A stretch of DNA of 42,545 nucleotides from a virus, in the UHGV virus genome UHGV-0212520; one strand, 5' to 3'. The notes under the pieces were generated by a model, which saw nothing but the letters and a program-made list of their open reading frames with translations, was not told where the DNA came from and did not search any database. The translations under genes were made by a program, and so were the position numbers. Every line of letters begins with the position of its first letter. Position 1 is the first letter of the stretch. Below are positions 6,507 to 29,091 of this stretch, one piece after another.

Positions 6507-6740
6507 TTATTCCAGGTCTTCTAAAGTAGCGGTCATTCCGCGAACTTCTGCAACGGCACTATATTTCCCACCAACATTTTTCACGACACCGGACTTAACC
6601 AGCACCTTCAACGACCCTTCAATAATGGCGGAACTATAGTACTTAAAATAACTACGGCGCAAGTCGATAACGCTGCACGACCCTTTTTTACGTGTTAACG
6701 AAACTACTGCCGTGAATACCCGTGACTGGAACTCGGTCAT
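6507..6740 (-). CDS. Hypothetical protein ending in TATLEDLE
   Basis: 77 aa ORF; ATG overlaps the stop of the upstream AlpA-like gene (ATGA); C-terminal LEDLE tail resembles the EEDLE tails of exonuclease and primase-helicase. Confidence 0.5.
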   Translation of the reverse strand: MTEFQSRVFTAVVSLTRKKGSCSVIDLRRSYFKYYSSAIIEGSLKVLVKSGVVKNVGGKYSAVAEVRGMTATLEDLE

Positions 6741-6907
6741 TTTACATTCTCCTTAATCCACGCTTCCACTTTCTCCGGGTCAAACGTACCTGGTTGCCGG
6801 CGGCCCATAATGCGAATACAACAATCCGGGAACTTCCCACTCTTTAACCAGTTATTCAGCGTGCGACGAGTAACCCCGATACGCTCAGCTACCTCATTCT
6901 GTGTCAT
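6737..6907 (-). CDS. AlpA/Xis-like small HTH DNA-binding protein
   Basis: 56 aa; MTQNEVAERIGVTRRTLNNWLKSGKFP matches the AlpA-type HTH pattern; RBS AAGGAG; not in ORF track (<60 aa). Confidence 0.5.
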   Translation of the reverse strand: MTQNEVAERIGVTRRTLNNWLKSGKFPDCCIRIMGRRQPGTFDPEKVEAWIKENVK

Positions 6908-7490: not shown

Positions 7491-7519
7491 TTGCACACCC
7501 CAACATAATAGGATACTAT
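7491..7519 (+). promoter_or_regulatory. sigma70-like promoter, family B copy 1 (TTGCAC-N17-TACTAT)
   Basis: TTGCAC 7491-7496, spacer accccaacataatagga, TACTAT 7514-7519; spacer and flank conserved with 8821-8849 and the minus-strand copies at 19594-19622 and 28174-28202. Confidence 0.5.
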
Positions 7520-8283: not shown

Positions 8284-8481
8284 ATGGGTGAGTGGATTAG
8301 GTGTAGTGAGCGGATGCCAATGGCGTGCCGTGACGTAATAATAACCGACATGGATATGGTTTCCAGAGTGGCGTGGTTCAACGATAGAAATGATGCCTGG
8401 TATGTTACCGGGGTTGGGTGGTTTTCACGTGATGAGGTGACTCACTGGATGCCGTTGCCCGAGCCGCCATCGCTGGCGTAA
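8284..8481 (+). CDS. Hypothetical protein, possibly DUF551-like
   Basis: 65 aa; C-terminal THWMPLPEPP resembles the DUF551 phage domain (from memory, unverified); RBS GAGGTG. Confidence 0.4.
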   Translation: MGEWIRCSERMPMACRDVIITDMDMVSRVAWFNDRNDAWYVTGVGWFSRDEVTHWMPLPEPPSLA

Positions 8482-8482
8482 C

Positions 8483-8518
8483 AGGTGGTGTAATAGGTGG
8501 TGTAATAGGTGGTGTAAT
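8483..8518. repeat. Three perfect tandem copies of the 12-mer AGGTGGTGTAAT
   Basis: aggtggtgtaat repeated at 8483-8494, 8495-8506, 8507-8518, followed by a partial copy aggccaatagg. Confidence 0.85.
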
Positions 8519-8550
8519 AGGCCAATAGGTTACTATTTGGCTTTGTGTCT

Positions 8551-8820: not shown

Positions 8821-8849
8821 TTGCACAGTAAGATAGAATAGGCTACTAT
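8821..8849 (+). promoter_or_regulatory. sigma70-like promoter, family B copy 2 (TTGCAC-N17-TACTAT)
   Basis: TTGCAC 8821-8826, spacer agtaagatagaataggc, TACTAT 8844-8849. Confidence 0.5.
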
Positions 8850-17884: not shown

Positions 17885-18928
17885 ATGAGCTTACTTACAT
17901 CCCTAATCAGCCACCAGATTTGGCTGCAACGCACCGCATCGGGCGAAGTGAAAGACCTTGCGCCTTTCATTAAGGAGATGCGGGACGAAATCAAACGGCA
18001 GGTGCTGCTGTTCGGTGACGATGGGCGTAGCACCGCGCGACTGAATAAACTGTTACGCGACCTGGAAGAAGCACTGAGCGGACTTACGGGCGACTGGCAA
18101 ACAAAGCTGACGGAAGACCTTAAGGAACTGGCGGAGTATGAAGCAGAGTGGAACGTAAAAACGCTGACGGCTAACGTTAACGCGGAATTTGTTACACCCG
18201 CCGCCGAGCAGGTGTGGTCCGCCGCCGAGTTTCAGCCTCTGTCGCTAAGCGACAAGCCTGTCGATTTCACCAAGCTGATGTCGGACTGGGGTGAAACGGA
18301 GGTTGCGCGCCTGGTAACTGGTGTTAAGATGGGTTTCGTACAAGGGCAAACCACACGGCAGATTGTTAAGAATGTTGTAGGCGCTGGCGGACTGGCCGAC
18401 ATCTCAGAACGTAACGCAGCTACCGTAATCCGCACCGCGCTGTCGCACGTATCCAACGAAGCCCGTAACGAGACGTACCGCCAGAACGACGACATCATCG
18501 AGAAATACGAATGGGTATCAACGCTGGACAGCCGTACCAGTACGATTTGCAGAGCCAGAGACGGAATGACGTGGGAAATCGGTAAAGGGCCGATGCCCCC
18601 CGCCCATCCGAACTGTCGATCGTGCACGGCACCGGTAATCAGTTCAGAGTTCGATTTCCTGGATAAAGGCGCAAAACGCGCGGCTAAGGGCGCGGACGGC
18701 GGGACTCAGGTAAGCGCGGACACCACTTACTACGAGTTCCTTAAACAACAACCGGCGTGGTTTATCGACGAGGCCATCGGCCCTGTTCGCGGTAAGATTT
18801 TCCGCGACAGCGGTATATCGCCAGAGGAGTTTCGCGTAATATCTGTAGATGGTTTCGGGAATCCGCTAACGCTTAAGCAGATGGCGGAACTCGATAAACG
18901 TGTTGCTGATTATCTGAAAGGGGAATAA
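17885..18928 (+). CDS. Head morphogenesis protein (Mu gpF / SPP1 gp7-like)
   Basis: 347 aa; C-terminal WVSTLDSRTSTICRARDGMTWEIGKGPMPPAHPNCRSC matches the conserved minor head protein motif; follows portal. Confidence 0.7.
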   Translation: MSLLTSLISHQIWLQRTASGEVKDLAPFIKEMRDEIKRQVLLFGDDGRSTARLNKLLRDLEEALSGLTGDWQTKLTEDLKELAEYEAEWNVKTLTANVNAEFVTPAAEQVWSAAEFQPLSLSDKPVDFTKLMSDWGETEVARLVTGVKMGFVQGQTTRQIVKNVVGAGGLADISERNAATVIRTALSHVSNEARNETYRQNDDIIEKYEWVSTLDSRTSTICRARDGMTWEIGKGPMPPAHPNCRSCTAPVISSEFDFLDKGAKRAAKGADGGTQVSADTTYYEFLKQQPAWFIDEAIGPVRGKIFRDSGISPEEFRVISVDGFGNPLTLKQMAELDKRVADYLKGE

Positions 18929-19389
18929 TGATGGGCTTTTTCAAAGTAACTGATGCACCGTCGCGCCGCGTAGTCCAGTACGCCCGCGTGTCTGGCTCTG
19001 GCGAGAACGTTGTGTTTATTGAGGATGAAAGTGTACTCGGCACACCTGTGGACGATATGCCTTTTGCAGATAAAACCGGTATTGCACTACCCGCAGCGGG
19101 TATGCTTTACGAGATTCCGTATCTGGCGGACGCAGGCGATGTGTATTTCTCTGTGCAACCGAAAGACGCTGAACTGGCAGACGGCAGCGCAACTATCACT
19201 GTCGAAGTTAAGGCTGGCAAAGCGCCGTATGCTCTTACCTGGTACAAAGACGGTAAGGAAGTGGTCAACGCCCCTGAAGAGGCTTTGTCTCTGACGGTTA
19301 ACGCAGTCGGTGAATACTTCGTTAAAGTTACCGATGCCGGTGGTGTAGAGGCCGTCAGTAAAGTGGCGAAGGTCACTAAGCCTGAATGA
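18928..19389 (+). CDS. Ig-like domain protein (possible capsid or tail decoration)
   Basis: 153 aa; YALTWYKDGKEVV...GEYFVKVTDAGG resembles bacterial Ig-like domains; similar segment in 22336-22677. Confidence 0.5.
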   Translation: MMGFFKVTDAPSRRVVQYARVSGSGENVVFIEDESVLGTPVDDMPFADKTGIALPAAGMLYEIPYLADAGDVYFSVQPKDAELADGSATITVEVKAGKAPYALTWYKDGKEVVNAPEEALSLTVNAVGEYFVKVTDAGGVEAVSKVAKVTKPE

Positions 19390-19390
19390 T

Positions 19391-19418
19391 AAAAGGCCCC
19401 AAATGGGGCCTTAGTTTT
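19391..19418. terminator. Bidirectional intrinsic terminator (AAGGCCCC-N4-GGGGCCTT family)
   Basis: aaaaggccccaaatggggccttagtttt. Confidence 0.65.
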
Positions 19419-19542
19419 ATGTTAAGCTGAGTCTTTCTGCCCACTCAAGCATCACCTTTTTAATGCGTGAGTCGGGGGCGTCTCTCCACGCTTTACGGAT
19501 AACCGCAGCTCGACATTTATTTTTAAGAGGTGCGTAGTTCAT
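19417..19542 (-). CDS. Small hypothetical protein (41 aa) driven by promoter B3
   Basis: ATG 19542 on minus strand, translation MNYAPLKNKCRAAVIRKAWRDAPDSRIKKVMLEWAERLSLT; ends at the terminator; weak RBS. Confidence 0.3.
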   Translation of the reverse strand: MNYAPLKNKCRAAVIRKAWRDAPDSRIKKVMLEWAERLSLT

Positions 19543-19593
19543 TTTAAATATTCCCGATTTGATGGATTAAACATGTTGTGTGTGTTGAAATGA

Positions 19594-19622
19594 ATAGTAC
19601 CCTATTGTATTGGTGTCTGCAA
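19594..19622 (-). promoter_or_regulatory. sigma70-like promoter, family B copy 3 (TTGCAG-N17-TACTAT on minus strand)
   Basis: Reverse complement: TTGCAG acaccaatacaataggg TACTAT tcattt; near-identical to 28174-28202. Confidence 0.5.
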
Positions 19623-19942: not shown

Positions 19943-20332
19943 ATGAATCTTAAAGCAACTGTCGTAGCGGGAGCGTGTTTCATCATCCTGGCCCACGCAC
20001 ACGGCGTCTACCAGTACCGCATCGGCTGGAACGAAGGCCGGGCGAATCTCGTTTCGCAGCAACAGCAGAAAGCACAGGCTGAGTTCGCGAAGAAAACACA
20101 ACGGCAGCAGCAGGATGAATCAAAGGCCGCAGCCGCTGACAACGAAGGTAAGACGAAATCAGAGGTGATTACCCGTGAAGTCGTTAAGTACATTAAAACG
20201 CCTGGTCGCAGCGTGTGCACTTTTGACCCTGAGCGCGTGCAGCTCAAGTCCCGCGCCGTCGTCAACGCCAATTCCATCCCCGGATACGATGATGATGCAG
20301 CCGCCGTGCAAACTGGCAGCGCCAAGCAGTGA
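19943..20332 (+). CDS. Rz: i-spanin (Rz-like)
   Basis: 129 aa; N-terminal TM segment, Q/E-rich coiled-coil middle, RBS AGGGGGA; lipoprotein gene in +1 frame within its 3' half. Confidence 0.65.
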   Translation: MNLKATVVAGACFIILAHAHGVYQYRIGWNEGRANLVSQQQQKAQAEFAKKTQRQQQDESKAAAADNEGKTKSEVITREVVKYIKTPGRSVCTFDPERVQLKSRAVVNANSIPGYDDDAAAVQTGSAKQ

Positions 20333-24777: not shown

Positions 24778-25190
24778 TGGGCTACTTTGAGGACTTAACC
24801 AAAGCGTTCGATGTGCCGCTGGTAGCCTTCGGAACCACCAACGGCATCAAGGTCGCGCTTGAAAACATCGACGCGCCGACATCAACAGATACGCCGTATC
24901 TGGCTAGTTACATGCTACTTGCGGATACTGAGCAAGCAGATTTGTTCTTCACGGAACAACGTTCGGGCATTTATCAGGTAGACATTAACTACGCATCGGT
25001 GAAAGGTAGCGCGCCAATCAATAAAATGGCAGACTTACTTAACACGGCGTTTAAAGCAGGCAAGTCATTTTCGCGTAACGACATCTGCGCCGAGGTTCAA
25101 TCGGTTAGCCTGGGGCCGCTGATTGTAGAAAATGGATGGGCCAAACGGCCATTGTCAATTAACTTTATTGCATTCACCAAGAGGCTGTGA
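24774..25190 (+). CDS. Putative tail terminator/completion protein
   Basis: 138 aa immediately upstream of major tail protein; synteny only. Confidence 0.4.
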   Translation: MMGYFEDLTKAFDVPLVAFGTTNGIKVALENIDAPTSTDTPYLASYMLLADTEQADLFFTEQRSGIYQVDINYASVKGSAPINKMADLLNTAFKAGKSFSRNDICAEVQSVSLGPLIVENGWAKRPLSINFIAFTKRL

Positions 25191-26362
25191 ATATGGCTAC
25201 AACTCCTTTTAAGGGCGCGAATACCGCGCAATTCTATGTGGCGGAAGTGACCCCGGGCGTAACACCGGCAAACCCGGTATGGTCGCCGTTGCGTAACACT
25301 GGCGGCGTTCCCGCGGTAACCCGAGATGCGCTGACTTCCAACGAACTGGACGGCAGCCGAGAAACTACATCCATCCGCACTGGTAACAAACAGGTCAGCG
25401 GCGAGTATGCCATTGAGCTTAGCTCCCGTAGCCAGGATGATTTCCTTGCGGGTGCTATGACTTCTACGTGGCAGGATGGGGTAACCTTATCCGCTGTCGG
25501 AATTACGGTAGACCCGGTAGCAAAAACTTTCACCCGCGACACTGGCAGTTTCATTACTGACGGAGTAGAGGTCGGGGACCTTCTGTATTTTGACGCTTTA
25601 ACCGGCGATAACTCTAAGCCGTTTATCGTTACCGCAGTAACTGCTACTGTGGTTACGGGTGCAGGTATTCAACACACCCTGACCGCCGAAGGTCCTATCG
25701 AGACCGACGGTAAAACGGGTGACAAGCTGGAAACCGGTAACGCATGTAAGACTTTCTCCATCCTGACATGGTTCAAAGGTCAGTGTGGGAACCCAGACGC
25801 GTACATGTTGACCAAAGGCGTGGAAATCTCCGGTTTCACCATTGAACAGGCCGTAAACGCGATGGCGACGGGCAGCTTCCCGTTCATCGGCCTGAGTCAG
25901 GAGATTCTTACCGCGCCGCCAGCAGGTTCCGACTTCTCTCAGGTCACATTCACTGACGAGCCGTTCTCTTCTGTAGATGTGTCTGTGTTCGACGGTTCTA
26001 CGCCGTTGCGTTGCGATACTCTGACCATCACCAACGACAACGGTGCTTCCGCGCAGTTCGAACTCGGCAACAGTAGCGTTGCGTTCGTGGAACGTGGTCG
26101 CGCAGCTAATACCTTCTCCATCTCCGGTAAGCTGTACGACATGGCGATGATCCAGAAGTTTATCAACGAGCAGCAGGTAGAGATTAACTCTATTCTGGCG
26201 GGGGTAAACGGAGCTATGTCTTTCAGTTTGAAACGTGCCGAACTTACGGCGGTTACACCAGAGATTGGGGGGCCAGAGTCAATCACTCAGTCCGTTGAAG
26301 GGCAGGCCACCGGCAACCAGTACCAGTCGTCTATTGTTATCCAGCGTATCACCTACGCATAA
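25187..26362 (+). CDS. Major tail (tube) protein
   Basis: 391 aa (probable ATG at 25193, RBS AAGAGG); last gene before terminator and upstream of chaperone/tape-measure genes. Confidence 0.55.
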   Translation: MNMATTPFKGANTAQFYVAEVTPGVTPANPVWSPLRNTGGVPAVTRDALTSNELDGSRETTSIRTGNKQVSGEYAIELSSRSQDDFLAGAMTSTWQDGVTLSAVGITVDPVAKTFTRDTGSFITDGVEVGDLLYFDALTGDNSKPFIVTAVTATVVTGAGIQHTLTAEGPIETDGKTGDKLETGNACKTFSILTWFKGQCGNPDAYMLTKGVEISGFTIEQAVNAMATGSFPFIGLSQEILTAPPAGSDFSQVTFTDEPFSSVDVSVFDGSTPLRCDTLTITNDNGASAQFELGNSSVAFVERGRAANTFSISGKLYDMAMIQKFINEQQVEINSILAGVNGAMSFSLKRAELTAVTPEIGGPESITQSVEGQATGNQYQSSIVIQRITYA

Positions 26363-26363
26363 A

Positions 26364-26392
26364 ACTAAGGCCCCTTTCGGGGCCTTTTTCTT
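26364..26392. terminator. Bidirectional intrinsic terminator (AAGGCCCC-N4-GGGGCCTT family)
   Basis: ctaaggcccctttcggggcctttttc; T-tracts on both strands. Confidence 0.7.
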
Positions 26393-26549
26393 ATTCCTTC
26401 AATTGCATAGGGTAGAAGTTAACGACTTCTCCTTTATCCCGAAGCCGTGAATATTCATCTAACGCATCTTCCTGGCTACTTACGGCATAGATATCATTCC
26501 ACTCGTCCCACTCTTTGTCGTATACGCGGATTACATATATTGTTTTCAT
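26391..26549 (-). CDS. Small hypothetical protein, last gene of minus-strand moron operon
   Basis: Probable start at ATG 26549 (MKTIYVIRVYDKEWDEW...), 52 aa; the track ORF extends to 26606 but would overlap the upstream gene. Confidence 0.35.
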   Translation of the reverse strand: MKTIYVIRVYDKEWDEWNDIYAVSSQEDALDEYSRLRDKGEVVNFYPMQLKE

Positions 26550-26556
26550 TACGGTC

Positions 26557-26787
26557 TCACTCATCAATGTTACTTCGATACTCCCGTAACTTCTCCAGAC
26601 TTTCAATCGCTTCCGCTAAGTCTGTTCCGGTGTCCTTGTGTCCGCGCAAGCCCATGCACAATAACTTCTTCAATGCGTGCTGTAACGCCGGGTCGCGGAT
26701 GTCGAAGGCGCGGAGCACATCATAAACGTCTACTGTCATAGTGCTGCCGTGGATGTTCGTCATTGTGCGGTTGTATTTTGAAGTCAT
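26557..26787 (-). CDS. Hypothetical protein in moron operon
   Basis: 76 aa; ATG overlaps stop of upstream phosphoesterase gene (ATGA). Confidence 0.5.
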   Translation of the reverse strand: MTSKYNRTMTNIHGSTMTVDVYDVLRAFDIRDPALQHALKKLLCMGLRGHKDTGTDLAEAIESLEKLREYRSNIDE

Positions 26788-27914
26788 CCCAGCATCTCCG
26801 GTGAAATAGTTAAACGTGCGACTTCGCCATATTCGGCGCTATAAGTAATTACATTTGCGCTACGGCCAGACATCCACCCACCGCGGGAAGCATATGCATC
26901 TTTCGCCGCGAGAGTGCGATGTTGTTCCACTACCATATTCCTACTTTCTACAATCTTTTGATGGTGGAGATGCCCGACATGTGCGTAACTGTACTCGCTT
27001 TCGCCAAATGCTTTTCTGAACTTAGCTATCATAATGGGTTCGACCACCTCAAACCGGCATTTATGCCCGTGCGTAAAGAACAGCGTCGTTTTGCCGTGCT
27101 GGACCATCTTGTAAACATCCGGCGACGTATCGACGAACACACGCGGCTCATTGTCATACAGCGTACTGAACATCTCAGCCAACCAAATCATGCCACTCTC
27201 GTCGTGATTTCCTTGCACGATAAGCAAGCGAACATTTTTGTGTTTAACCAGCGCCATATCAACAACACGGCGGACCATACGAATCATGTAGCGGACCAGT
27301 TTCTGATAGCGTGTGTCTGCGTCCAACACATGGCGCGACTCAGGGGTAACGGCATCCAGACTATCGAAGTGCGCGAAGTCACCTAACAGGTTAATAACTC
27401 CTGTCCCTGCATCCGGTGCTTTCTGAAACGCTGCATCGAACCAGCGAGAGAACAGGTCTTCCGCGATTTTCATATCCCAGTCGTCGCCGCTCTCGTCGGC
27501 CCAGGCCAGCATGCCAAGATGAAAATCAGATACCGTGTAAAGATTGAGTAGTTTATCATCGCGTTTAGCGCGGGCAGCTTTAACAGGCGCAACTGGCGTA
27601 ATCTCCGACTTCATGCCCTCGATTACGGCTTTCATCAACTCGACCTGACGTTCGGCGTCGGTGTCAGTCTTAACCCATTGCAGTTTAGTATTGCCAAACT
27701 CGTCCACCAGCGACGATGTACCTTTAATCTTGTAGCCGTCTGGTACAAGGTGGCTGACGTCACGTCCGTGGCCTACGCCTTTCTTAGCCAGCTTCGCTTT
27801 ACGGATGCGAATAACGCGGTCTGAGATGCCGTATTTACGGGCGATGTCGATATTCTTCACACCGGCGTTCAATTCTTCCTGCAACTGTTCGTCGGTTATT
27901 TTCTTCCGGGCCAT
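26784..27914 (-). CDS. N-terminal HTH domain fused to calcineurin-like metallophosphoesterase (SbcD/Mre11-like motif set)
   Basis: 376 aa; N-terminal ITDEQLQEELNAGVKNIDIARKYGISDRVIRIRKAKL (HTH); then SDFHLG (DxH), LLGDFAHFD (GDxxD-like), VQGNHDE (GNHD/E), FTHGHK, HVGHLHH (GHxH); RBS GAGGAA. Confidence 0.6.
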   Translation of the reverse strand: MARKKITDEQLQEELNAGVKNIDIARKYGISDRVIRIRKAKLAKKGVGHGRDVSHLVPDGYKIKGTSSLVDEFGNTKLQWVKTDTDAERQVELMKAVIEGMKSEITPVAPVKAARAKRDDKLLNLYTVSDFHLGMLAWADESGDDWDMKIAEDLFSRWFDAAFQKAPDAGTGVINLLGDFAHFDSLDAVTPESRHVLDADTRYQKLVRYMIRMVRRVVDMALVKHKNVRLLIVQGNHDESGMIWLAEMFSTLYDNEPRVFVDTSPDVYKMVQHGKTTLFFTHGHKCRFEVVEPIMIAKFRKAFGESEYSYAHVGHLHHQKIVESRNMVVEQHRTLAAKDAYASRGGWMSGRSANVITYSAEYGEVARLTISPEMLG

Positions 27915-27951
27915 GCTTATTCCTCGTGCTTAGGATTTGTCCTATACTAGC

Positions 27952-28143
27952 TCACTTCTCTTTAACATTCGAGTTGCAAGCCCAGATTAAAATAAATAAC
28001 CACGGCAACAGAACCCAGCCAAGAAACAGATTAGCCATGAATATCGCTAATTTCGCTTTATGGTTGCGGAAGTACGCAACCAGGAAAGGTGTGAAATAGG
28101 CGAGAAGTGCAAACAGAATTAAGGAAACCGGTAAACTGGACAT
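27952..28143 (-). CDS. Superinfection immunity protein (T4 Imm-like small membrane protein)
   Basis: YFTPFLVAYFRNHKAKLAIFMANLFLGWVLLPWLFILIWA matches the Imm_superinfect pattern (YFLPSI..F.R.H.N..AIF.LNL.LGWT..GW..ALIWA) from memory; start set to ATG 28143 (RBS AAGGGG); first gene after promoter B4. Confidence 0.6.
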   Translation of the reverse strand: MSSLPVSLILFALLAYFTPFLVAYFRNHKAKLAIFMANLFLGWVLLPWLFILIWACNSNVKEK

Positions 28144-28173
28144 TTTAAACCCCTTCATTGTTGGTGTAAGTGA

Positions 28174-28202
28174 ATAGTACCCTATTATATTGGGGTGCGC
28201 AA
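28174..28202 (-). promoter_or_regulatory. sigma70-like promoter, family B copy 4 (TTGCGC-N17-TACTAT on minus strand)
   Basis: Reverse complement: TTGCGC accccaatataataggg TACTAT tcactt; drives the imm/phosphoesterase operon. Confidence 0.55.
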
Positions 28203-28309
28203 GTAATGTGATAGAATAATTTTGCGCCTAGTGTCGCACACGAAAAGCGGGTGGTTCCCGTCTGGCGCATTAACCTTAACCAGTAACCTCTTAACCAAAG
28301 GATTAAAGA

Positions 28310-28726
28310 ATGAAACTTTCTGATTTTTATTTCGAAGAGAAAGCACTGGTGGGCAAGAAGATGCCGATTCTCCTGCCGAATGGCGAAGACTCCGGGGAAT
28401 GGCTTAACGTTGTAAGTCCTGATGCGGATGTCGCTGTTAAAGCGGGGCGTGCTTTCATTATCGCGTATCGTCGCGGGCTGGCACGTTTCGAAGAACTGGA
28501 AAAAGCCGCCAAAGAATCCGGCGACTATACTGAATATAACCTGGCGGTTAACGAACTGGCAGAAGACCTCAACCGGCAACTCGCGGCAGAAGTCGTAAAC
28601 GGCTGGAGCTTTGATGAGCCTTTCTCTAAAGAAGCATTTAGCAAATTGCTGGACCAGTTCAAGGCATTGGGCACACAGGTAGCAGCGTTCCATAACGCTG
28701 AGCGCAAAGCATTACAGGAAAAGTAG
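28310..28726 (+). CDS. Tail assembly chaperone (lambda gpG-like)
   Basis: 138 aa acidic protein immediately upstream of tape measure; -1 frame ORF continues past its stop. Confidence 0.55.
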   Translation: MKLSDFYFEEKALVGKKMPILLPNGEDSGEWLNVVSPDADVAVKAGRAFIIAYRRGLARFEELEKAAKESGDYTEYNLAVNELAEDLNRQLAAEVVNGWSFDEPFSKEAFSKLLDQFKALGTQVAAFHNAERKALQEK

Positions 28727-29091
28727 ACGCGCTGTACAGGTTCGCCACCTACGAGTTTGTGGATAAGCATAAAATCAGAGAGTTTGATTCTATAGCTGAC
28801 GGCCACGAACAGGCGCTTATCGCGATGGGTGTAATCGATAAGAAAAAACGTGCAGCGCGACGGGGTGGGCCAGAATGCCCGCCCCTTTTTATATCCACCT
28901 TTGAGACGTACTGTGACATTAAGTTTACGCGACACGTGCGCGAGGACGCTGTAGTATTGTTTGCAAGAGAATCCGTTACGTGGCAAGACCTGAAAGCCTA
29001 TCTCGATGTTACGCAAAAACAGCTTAGCCTGTTCGAGATAGACATTATCATGGGCTTAGAAGCAATCTTTGAAGGTAGAAATCATGGCTGA
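28310..29091 (+). CDS. Predicted tail assembly chaperone frameshift fusion (gpGT-like, -1 PRF near 28718-28726)
   Basis: -1 frame is open from the G stop to 29091, ending inside the tape-measure start; candidate slip at G_GAA_AAG immediately before the TAG stop; the track's independent ORF 28759-29091 has only a GTG start and no RBS. Confidence 0.4.
28718..28726 (+). promoter_or_regulatory. Candidate -1 programmed ribosomal frameshift site (GAA AAG TAG)
   Basis: Lys codon AAG can re-pair as AAA in -1 frame; placed at last sense codon before the stop; lambda G/GT uses GGGAAAG at the equivalent position. Confidence 0.35.

Follow-up and report, generated by a model that had tools for sequence, protein, structure and literature searches.

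Islands of minus-strand genes placed between the tail tube gene and the tail assembly chaperone genes are already annotated in hundreds of genomes of Jersey- and Kaguna-type siphophages, and they are an ordinary hallmark of this phage subfamily. Here we analyzed the island of the virus genome UHGV-0212520, a stretch of 42,545 nucleotides (nt) that is referred to below as the window. The island encodes an Imm-type membrane protein, a metallophosphoesterase with an N-terminal helix-turn-helix (HTH), referred to as MPE, and two small proteins, p76 and p57. Relatives of this phage have been described as lytic, and in one of them, phage fBC-Eco01, PHIRE picked up seven 'phage promoters' with the same motif that we find at the head of the island (PMC9825357). 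In Kagunavirus vB_Eco_K1B4, an RNA-seq study placed Imm in a temporal class different from that of the surrounding structural genes, grouping it with DNA polymerase and methylases (PMC12645636); per-gene values for MPE were not found in the supplementary tables of that study. For another phage metallophosphoesterase, Gp48 of mycobacteriophage A10ZJ24, degradation of host DNA and a counter-defence role have been described (PMC12287305). We consider it probable, at roughly 65%, that the island in the window is a lineage-typical accessory island, that is, an antisense operon occupying the tube/chaperone gap of Jersey- and Kaguna-type siphophages.

The window represents a Kagunavirus-like siphophage (Guernseyvirinae). 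When the region 26200-28400 was used in a megablast search, 307 phage records were matched, the best matches being Escherichia Kagunavirus phages with 86-92% identity, followed by many Salmonella Jerseyvirus phages. A first-pass annotation, made from the letters of the DNA, had placed four minus-strand genes inside the plus-strand tail module. Indeed, the same four minus-strand open reading frames (ORFs; 27952-28158, 26784-27914, 26557-26787 and 26391-26606) are flanked on one side by the tail tube gene (25187-26362, plus strand; PF18906, E=5e-38) and on the other by the tail assembly chaperone genes (plus strand; 28310-28726, PF08748, and 28759-29091, PF23812). The identities proposed in that annotation, namely an Imm-like protein, an HTH-metallophosphoesterase and two small proteins, were also right (PF14373 and phrog_704, the two small proteins being without a Pfam family). 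The genes of the island and the signals at its two ends are the following.

28171..28212, minus strand: candidate island promoter, with a −10 hexamer TATAAT at 28189-28184, a TTGCGC box at 28202-28197 and a possible −35 hexamer ATCACA at 28212-28207
27952..28158, minus strand: Imm-type membrane protein (PF14373, phrog_1039), 68 amino acids (aa) when read from ATG 28158
26784..27914, minus strand: HTH-metallophosphoesterase (MPE), 376 aa, phrog_704
26557..26787, minus strand: p76, 76 aa, a stand-alone copy of a widespread small phage domain
26391..26564, minus strand: p57, the last island gene, 57 aa from ATG 26564, or possibly 52 aa from 26549
26367..26386, both strands: GC-rich hairpin, candidate bidirectional intrinsic terminator, with an 8-bp stem (6 GC pairs) and a 4-nt loop

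Judged by the ribosome-binding site AAGGGG in front of it, ATG 28143 is more likely to be the start of Imm than ATG 28158, which would give a protein of 63 aa. The start of p57 is probably 26564 or 26549, yielding the 57 or 52 aa that relatives annotate, and TTG 26606 is a less likely start. The start codon of p76 overlaps the stop codon of MPE (ATGA), and p57 and p76 overlap by 8 nt. Gene junctions that abut or overlap in this manner are consistent with a single operon.

The comparison of presence and absence at the tube/chaperone junction of related phages, which the first-pass annotation had proposed, proved informative. In the Vibrio phages 1.233.A and 1.265.O, which have a tube protein of 32-34% identity and the same head-to-tail synteny, the chaperone gene follows the tube gene after a 38-nt gap without any insert. 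Klebsiella phage 37P2 carries Imm alone in the slot, and in Serratia phage Otaku the slot holds a 108-aa signal-peptide protein alone; tblastn of the complete 37P2 and Otaku genomes detected none of MPE, p76 and p57. A third relative, L031, is likewise without MPE, and its first gene encodes a single-pass membrane protein (phrog_5031). The structural and replication modules of 37P2, Otaku and L031 are nonetheless the same as those of the MPE-bearing relatives. These sequence comparisons support the view that the island is an insertion relative to the outgroups and that it is dispensable for the lineage.

The content of the slot varied considerably. In a metagenomic census of 24 complete IMG/VR loci containing both flanking genes, the interval measured between 457 and 3142 bp and at least 8 gene arrangements were found, with MPE present in all except one of these loci (23/24). 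Among described phages, DUEC01 and Shashou have the order Imm-MPE-p66-p76-p52/57, Bas74 has p76 alone after Imm-MPE, EcoPhCCP1 continues after Imm-MPE with a PNKP-type HAD phosphatase, a P-loop kinase and a p57 homologue of 58 aa, and Salmonella phage wast has Imm-MPE-HNH endonuclease-p76-Rha/ANT. Where the first gene could be identified, it encodes Imm, a phrog_14165 secreted protein (Otaku type) or a single-pass membrane protein. All of these are envelope-targeted, and the fact that an envelope-targeted protein always comes first fits an exclusion role.

Moreover, the genes of the island do not share one history. Identity to the Jerseyviruses is about 73% throughout for the tube protein, 87% in some and 55% in others for MPE, and 89% for p76; the identities of MPE and p76 are thus decoupled from that of the tube, which points to a mosaic history separate from the flanks. 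In vB_EcoS-12397IV, MPE and p76 lie 8 kb apart, and in Drexlerviridae, Bonnellvirus, Vibrio, Campylobacter, roseophage and N4-like genomes MPE is found elsewhere and without Imm. The four genes thus differ from one another in distribution and do not travel together as a system. The first-pass annotation had not recognized their combination as a described system; the Imm-MPE island is nevertheless widely annotated and does not represent a new system. The designation as moron-type accessory cargo is largely supported: signals that are separable at the sequence level, insertion relative to outgroups, presence/absence and variable content all agree with it. The cargo is neither a recent nor an unusual insert. 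The GC content of the island (0.486-0.512) shows no anomaly compared to that of the flanks (0.50-0.53), and this, together with the near-universal presence of the island in the two main genera, argues against a recent foreign origin.

The Imm protein matched PF14373 with 47.2 bits (cut-off 27.9; E=2.1e-12) over profile positions 2-42 of 42, and phrog_1039, 'immunity to superinfection', with E=2.7e-22. By tblastn it detected the imm genes of T-even-type myoviruses at E~2e-5, and a hydropathy analysis of its 63-aa form showed hydrophobic helices at residues ~4-24 and ~33-56. In scans against Pfam, NCBIfam and PADLOC no match was obtained for p76 and p57. The former aligns with longer PHROG families over no more than their C-terminal ~70 aa and is distributed over 782 phage records and 3,606 protein clusters, in which it stands alone or is fused at the N- or C-terminus; a Pfam scan of 50 longer proteins that bear this domain showed no domain in the fusion partners. 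Among the phages that were compared directly, p76 is 89-99% identical. Its AlphaFold2 model (pLDDT 91.5) consists of a beta-hairpin and three helices and gave no fold match against the PDB with Foldseek. A derivation of p76 by truncation of the neighbouring HAD/kinase genes was rejected, as it shows no similarity to them; p76 is an independent domain. The GenBank labels given to it ('phosphodiesterase', 'ATPase', 'terminase') are unreliable transfers. In contrast to the widespread p76, p57 is Kagunavirus-specific, with matches limited to 23 phage records that all belong to Escherichia, Shigella or Kagunavirus. Its identity is 91% to Shashou gp20 and 57% to the 58-aa protein of EcoPhCCP1; p57 and the 66-aa protein of relatives belong to no Pfam or PHROG family.

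The signals that delimit the island were examined both within the window and in relatives. The tail of the hairpin at 26367-26386 is TTTCTTATTC when read on the plus strand and AGTTTTATGC when read on the minus strand. It is kept in relatives, in some of which the loop is inverted, and a terminator is annotated at its site in phages Shashou (both strands) and fBC-Eco01. As a candidate terminator, it would stop transcription of the plus-strand tube gene and, from the opposite direction, that of the minus-strand island. At the opposite end, a generic scan detected ATCACA-17-TATAAT on the minus strand (28212..28184) with 10 out of 12 consensus matches. A 20-nt motif that coincides with 28174-28202, where the first-pass annotation had located a promoter of the island's own, occurs 5 times in the window compared to 0.01 copies expected. 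The core of this motif is the palindrome AATAG-N4-CTATT, of which the window contains 11 copies (expected ~1), at 699, 3860, 3905, 7507, 8524, 8837, 11997, 19593, 19684, 28173 and 39836; the island copy (28173-28186) overlaps the promoter candidate. The extended form TTGCnC-N7-TAnAAT-AGGnTACTATTCA is present at 7507 and 8837 (both plus strand) and at 19593 and 28173 (both minus strand), and all four of these best copies are followed on the same strand by a ribosome-binding site and an ORF some 30-60 nt downstream.

As the palindrome yields a −10-like hexamer on both strands, the orientation of each motif copy was set from its flanks and from the downstream genes. The copy at 8837 has a gene in one direction only, and this direction matches the strand orientation of the island, which supports a minus-strand island promoter that belongs to one class with those heading the early region. 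In promoters of this class the palindrome lies over the −10/+1 positions, whereas in a second set of copies (699, 3860 and 39836) it lies within the spacer of near-consensus TTGACA-17-TATAGT promoters of replication genes. The motif at the island promoter is conserved in 47 related sequences. These motif copies assign the island promoter to a promoter/operator family of the phage itself, one that also serves the beginning of the early region, and the palindrome is probably the operator of a phage regulator; the 56-aa HTH protein encoded at 6737-6907 is one candidate. The promoter of the first-pass annotation thus coincides with a five-copy motif, but it is not private to the island. We also considered the HTH of MPE as the binder of AATAG-N4-CTATT, which the comparison did not support: Otaku has palindrome-bearing promoters without MPE, 37P2 has neither, and a 13-kb region of JulesPiccard with MPE has no palindrome. 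A second, miniature antisense island built in the same way was observed within the structural module at 19391-19610, between a 153-aa plus-strand ORF (18928-19389) and a spanin-like gene. In it, a 41-aa minus-strand ORF (19417-19542) stands between the motif-class promoter at 19593 and a bidirectional hairpin (19391-19416).

MPE matched phrog_704 from end to end (E=5e-165), while its scores remained below the Pfam gathering scores (Metallophos_2, 25.7 bits vs 27; Metallophos, 19.6 vs 21.5). Some proteins that are near-identical to it do carry a precomputed PF12850 match, and by these profile scores MPE is a divergent family that is marginally captured by Pfam. Its domains are an N-terminal three-helix HTH (residues 8-44), a beta-hairpin plus helix (62-102) and the MPE core (119-376). 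In alignments of 9 and of 124 homologues, D130, H132, D179, H182, N236, H237, H282, H315 and H317 are invariant, and all five MPE motifs are intact across the 124 sequences (D130-x-H132, G178-D179-x-x-H182, G235-N236-H237-D238, H282 and H315-x-H317). The invariant residues make up a complete binuclear-metal site in which, as in Mre11, the GD of motif II is followed by a histidine at the third position. An AlphaFold2 model based on the 124-sequence alignment (pLDDT 88, pTM 0.78) shows that the core ends at residue 376 without a further domain, and the N-termini of MPE homologues match the Pfam families HTH_8, HTH_30, HTH_28 and HTH_psq. Foldseek with this model gave 87 matches in the PDB at E<=0.001; the 50 that were listed all have the MPE fold. 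The top matches, near E~1e-6, were PolD DP1 (TM 0.41), Mre11 (0.38-0.39) and GpdQ (0.38-0.39), and purple acid phosphatases and Rv0805 were matched as well. In a profile search against PDB sequences, T. maritima Mre11/SbcD came first (E=9e-5), with the alignment covering motifs I-II only (~70 residues); a search of the PDB with the single sequence gave nothing useful.

Several more specific assignments were tried and rejected. A lambda NinI-type Ser/Thr phosphatase does not fit, as motif II reads GDFAHFD and not GDxVDRG, and NinI was undetected by the MPE profile even with filters off. The profile gave no match to T5 A1, and an hmmsearch for homology to Bxb1 gp47 and the cluster A MPE scored −0.5 bits. 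In GenBank, MPE homologues are labelled as 'DNA polymerase II small subunit', 'DNA repair exonuclease', 'oxidoreductase', 'phosphatase' or 'HTH-type regulator/nuclease SbcD', all unreliable transfers. For Kagunavirus and SECphi27, no tested function of a phrog_704-type MPE was found in the literature.

Outside the Jersey- and Kaguna-type phages, the family is abundant (2,043 phage records contain a phrog_704 MPE) and ranges from enterobacterial siphoviruses to Campylobacter myoviruses, roseophages and N4-like phages. In Drexlerviridae, the gene adjoins the lysis cassette; in Bonnellvirus podoviruses it is located between endonuclease VII and a PNKP-type phosphatase in the DNA-metabolism module; in Vibrio siphoviruses it follows the single-stranded DNA-binding protein (SSB) gene, and in Campylobacter myoviruses, where the HTH is missing, it follows DNA ligase. 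Homologues are also present in roseophages and Flavobacterium phages, and among phage-like genes on an Afipia chromosome, after a lysozyme gene. In an N4-like contig (L073 6584-10335), the HTH-MPE homologue is encoded two genes upstream of the large terminase, a position where the small terminase subunit would be expected. Genes that recur next to it in other phages encode a PNKP-type 3'-phosphatase, a P-loop kinase, DNA ligase, endonuclease VII and SSB; taken with the HTH, these neighbours suggest that the substrate is a nucleic acid. In three unrelated phage families (L006 3628-4682; L012 4035-5227; L005 6306-6821), MPE is directly followed by a PNKP-type HAD 3'-phosphatase. Where both HAD and P-loop kinase follow (two families), the arrangement resembles a polynucleotide kinase-phosphatase divided over two genes, which is suggestive of an end-healing module. 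Taken at the level of motifs, fold and neighbours, we regard the odds as roughly even that MPE is a DNA-directed phosphodiesterase or nuclease that serves in host takeover or in end processing.

In the interpretation that we favor, the accessory island would be transcribed from the phage-family promoter, back-to-back with a restart promoter for the chaperone genes that is described below, and its transcript would stop at the hairpin that also terminates the tube gene. Imm would be a small two-helix inner-membrane protein which, by homology to T4 Imm, may shield the infected cell from the entry of DNA from later phages. The HTH-MPE would bind DNA and cleave nucleic-acid phosphodiester bonds, acting in host DNA degradation or in the processing of DNA or RNA ends, and would not be a virion or assembly factor. 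For the first-pass proposal that the island carries superinfection exclusion or anti-defence genes, this means that the exclusion part is in line with the Imm homology, whereas MPE looks like a nucleic-acid enzyme and all four island proteins were without a match in PADLOC-DB at E<=0.1.

Several observations weigh against this interpretation. The island is present in nearly all Jersey/Kaguna genomes and may therefore be important, not optional, in the natural hosts. Generic promoter matches in the region did not exceed chance (6 vs 3.4 +/- 2.0 expected), nor did a generic terminator scan (3 sites vs 2.6 expected), such that the bidirectional terminator of the first-pass annotation stands as a two-stranded hairpin that is conserved and annotated in relatives, and not by its score. 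The palindrome allows the same DNA to serve as a plus-strand promoter too, and the time classes of the K1B4 RNA-seq are coarse (PMC12645636). As regards MPE, its structural neighbours are generic, Foldseek giving a fold and no subfamily winner. A capping domain like that of Mre11 is missing from its model, and neither the island nor the large replication-module proteins of the window include a Rad50/SbcC partner. In addition, the contexts of its homologues are heterogeneous (lysis genes, terminase, genome ends).

The alternative that survives best is that the island is part of a core early or DNA-metabolism programme parked in the tail module, with MPE being an enzyme of replication/recombination or of host-DNA degradation that normal growth requires, and Imm acting early as in T4. 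The occurrence of MPE in 23 of the 24 related loci and in hundreds of records would fit this, as would the match between the island promoter motif and the early-region-head promoters at 7507 and 8837, the grouping of K1B4 Imm with DNA polymerase and methylases (PMC12645636), the Bonnellvirus homologue inside a DNA-metabolism module, and the mycobacteriophage MPE, which breaks down the DNA of the host and is required on some hosts (PMC12287305). However, the latter shows no detectable sequence relationship to the MPE of the island, the window already has a PD-(D/E)XK nuclease, SSB, helicases and polymerase, the genes downstream in the island swap freely, and 37P2, Otaku and L031 do without MPE while retaining the same structural and replication modules. 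On balance, we find a core programme unlikely, though it is the alternative to be taken most seriously.

A second alternative concerns the chemistry of MPE, which could be an end-healing 2',3'-cyclic or 3'-phosphoesterase that, acting with the products of PNKP-type phosphatase, kinase and ligase genes, repairs tRNA or DNA cut by host defence nucleases, comparable to T4 Pnk/Rnl1 and bacterial Pnkp. In bacterial Pnkp, a calcineurin-type MPE domain does indeed perform end-healing chemistry. The gene neighbourhoods speak for such a role: the HAD phosphatase directly after MPE in three families is assigned by Pfam to the PNKP phosphatase domain, the EcoPhCCP1 copy best matches Pnkp1 and T4 polynucleotide kinase in the PDB, a P-loop kinase comes next in two families, and in Campylobacter phages MPE follows DNA ligase. 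The window itself, however, is without a HAD phosphatase, kinase or ligase partner, the P-loop protein matched no polynucleotide-kinase family, and PDB sequence searches gave no match to the Pnkp MPE domain. Healing enzymes are also not known to carry an N-terminal HTH. This makes an end-healing enzyme a doubtful explanation, and less probable than a core programme.

Still less probable is a role of MPE as an anti-defence enzyme that destroys the second messengers of CBASS, Pycsar, Thoeris or type III CRISPR, or as a NinI-like protein phosphatase. The cyclic-nucleotide phosphodiesterases Rv0805 and GpdQ are among the Foldseek matches, one GenBank annotator recorded HHpred similarity to lambda phosphatase, and the patchy distribution at module boundaries resembles that of counter-defence genes. 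Against this, motif II is GDxxH and not GDxVDRG, the family profile does not detect NinI, the best profile match is Mre11/SbcD, and a DNA-binding HTH has no obvious role in small-molecule hydrolysis. The least probable alternative, that the motif at 28171-28202 drives the plus-strand chaperone operon only and that a promoterless island is expressed weakly or not at all, could appeal to the palindromic core, to TATATT at 28187-28192 on the plus strand and to the plus-strand genes that are also found downstream at 19593 and 28173, but it is hard to reconcile with the gene in island-type orientation only at the 8837 copy, the TTGCnC-N7 flank kept on the island side in 4/4 copies, the conservation of the four ORFs as proteins in many genomes, the Imm transcripts detected in a relative (PMC12645636), and a separate, conserved extended −10 on the plus strand 20 nt further on.

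This last element, together with a structured region behind it, completes the control region between the accessory island and the chaperone genes.

28209..28217, plus strand: extended −10 TGaTAGAAT, candidate restart promoter of the chaperone/tape-measure operon, recognized by conservation
28224..28268, plus strand: 45-nt structured element, a closing stem enclosing two hairpins, recognized by minimum-free-energy folding and covariation

Within the 47 related sequences, the TG and the hexamer of the extended −10 are constant across Kagunavirus, the base between them being A, C, G or T, and Jerseyviruses have TGyTATTCT at the same place. Judged by this conservation, the extended −10, which sits 20 nt beyond the island promoter, is likely to be the restart promoter of the chaperone and tape-measure genes. 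Since the two promoters overlap back-to-back, binding of polymerase to one would exclude binding to the other. In the leader at 28224-28268, 14 pairs are 98% paired over 8 distinct Kaguna- and Jersey-type variants. Compensatory changes were found in 3 of the pairs and in none when the 3' partner was slid as a control. Several of its G.U pairs would be A.C mismatches if read on the minus strand, and this plus-only pairing together with the covariation makes it likely that the element is the 5'-terminal RNA structure of the chaperone mRNA. An Rfam scan of the whole window, including the leader, gave no family, and the element is absent from 37P2 and Otaku. It could be a new cis-regulatory or stabilizing element that sets tail-protein stoichiometry. 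Further downstream, the −1 frame of the second chaperone ORF stays open from 28702 onwards, which makes the two chaperone ORFs share the final 25 nt of the first (...CAG GAA AAG TAG). This fits the programmed −1 frameshift usual for chaperone genes, even though the site departs from the canonical X XXY YYZ heptamer.

In the remainder of the window, replication genes occupy the minus strand at both ends, and plus-strand early, packaging, head and tail genes lie between them. The replication proteins comprise an Enc34-type SSB, a PD-(D/E)XK recombination nuclease, an AAA_25 primase-helicase, an SNF2 helicase and a family A polymerase; lysogeny genes are absent among the window ORFs examined. A spanin-like protein of 129 aa (19943-20332, plus strand), with an N-terminal membrane anchor and a charged coiled region, has the look of an i-spanin, and its gene is situated in the middle of the head/tail module, away from the lysis genes. 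Four tandem 12-nt units (ACAGGTGGTGTA / ATAGGTGGTGTA) were observed at 8469-8516, at the end of a small early ORF. They adjoin the palindrome copy at 8524 and could be iterons or a binding array.

The tube/chaperone junction is a natural slot for 0.5-3 kb of swappable genes, which makes it useful for phage engineering and for the mining of exclusion genes. The island of the window itself matters little, being a standard annotated feature of well-sampled therapeutic-candidate phages. Of wider value are the abundant and inconsistently labelled HTH-metallophosphoesterase family and the divergent promoters with the structured leader, which may explain how the dosage of tail genes is set after the strong tube terminator. 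More ambitiously, the HTH-MPE might be a general host-takeover or counter-defence nuclease that is co-expressed with a swappable exclusion gene, from a promoter competing with that of tail assembly, and the leader might be a new regulatory element; on present evidence we think this combined scenario tentative and rather unlikely.

The known systems place the island as follows. The published Guernseyvirinae islands of vB_Ec_DUEC01, Shashou, SonjaBuckley_Bas74 and wast resemble that of the window in position, orientation and Imm-then-MPE order, and they share the same hairpin and intergenic control region. The difference lies in the downstream genes: DUEC01 and Shashou have an additional 66-aa gene, EcoPhCCP1 has HAD/kinase genes and wast has HNH and Rha/ANT genes, whereas the window has only p76 and p57. 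T4 Imm is, like the Imm of the island, a small two-helix membrane protein of a virulent phage; the two are ~36% identical, and they differ in phage type and genomic location. With Mre11/SbcD and minimal MPE nucleases, the MPE of the island has in common the fold, the five motifs and GDxxH, and it is distinguished from Mre11/SbcD by the additional HTH and beta-hairpin module and by lacking both a capping domain and a Rad50/SbcC in the window. A10ZJ24 Gp48 and Bxb1 gp47 are phage MPEs with intact motifs and a proposed action on DNA that are non-essential on some hosts. Unlike the MPE of the island, however, they have no HTH, carry motif I at about residue 10 and belong to another phage lineage and host. 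A10ZJ24 Gp48, the only phage MPE with a comparable proposed role that is known to have been studied by experiment, is to be seen as a functional analogy and not as a family member. Finally, lambdoid morons share with the island promoter- and terminator-like signals, a location between conserved structural genes, absence from relatives and variability, and the island departs from them in being antisense to the late operon, in having a phage-family promoter instead of a constitutive one, and in its normal base composition.

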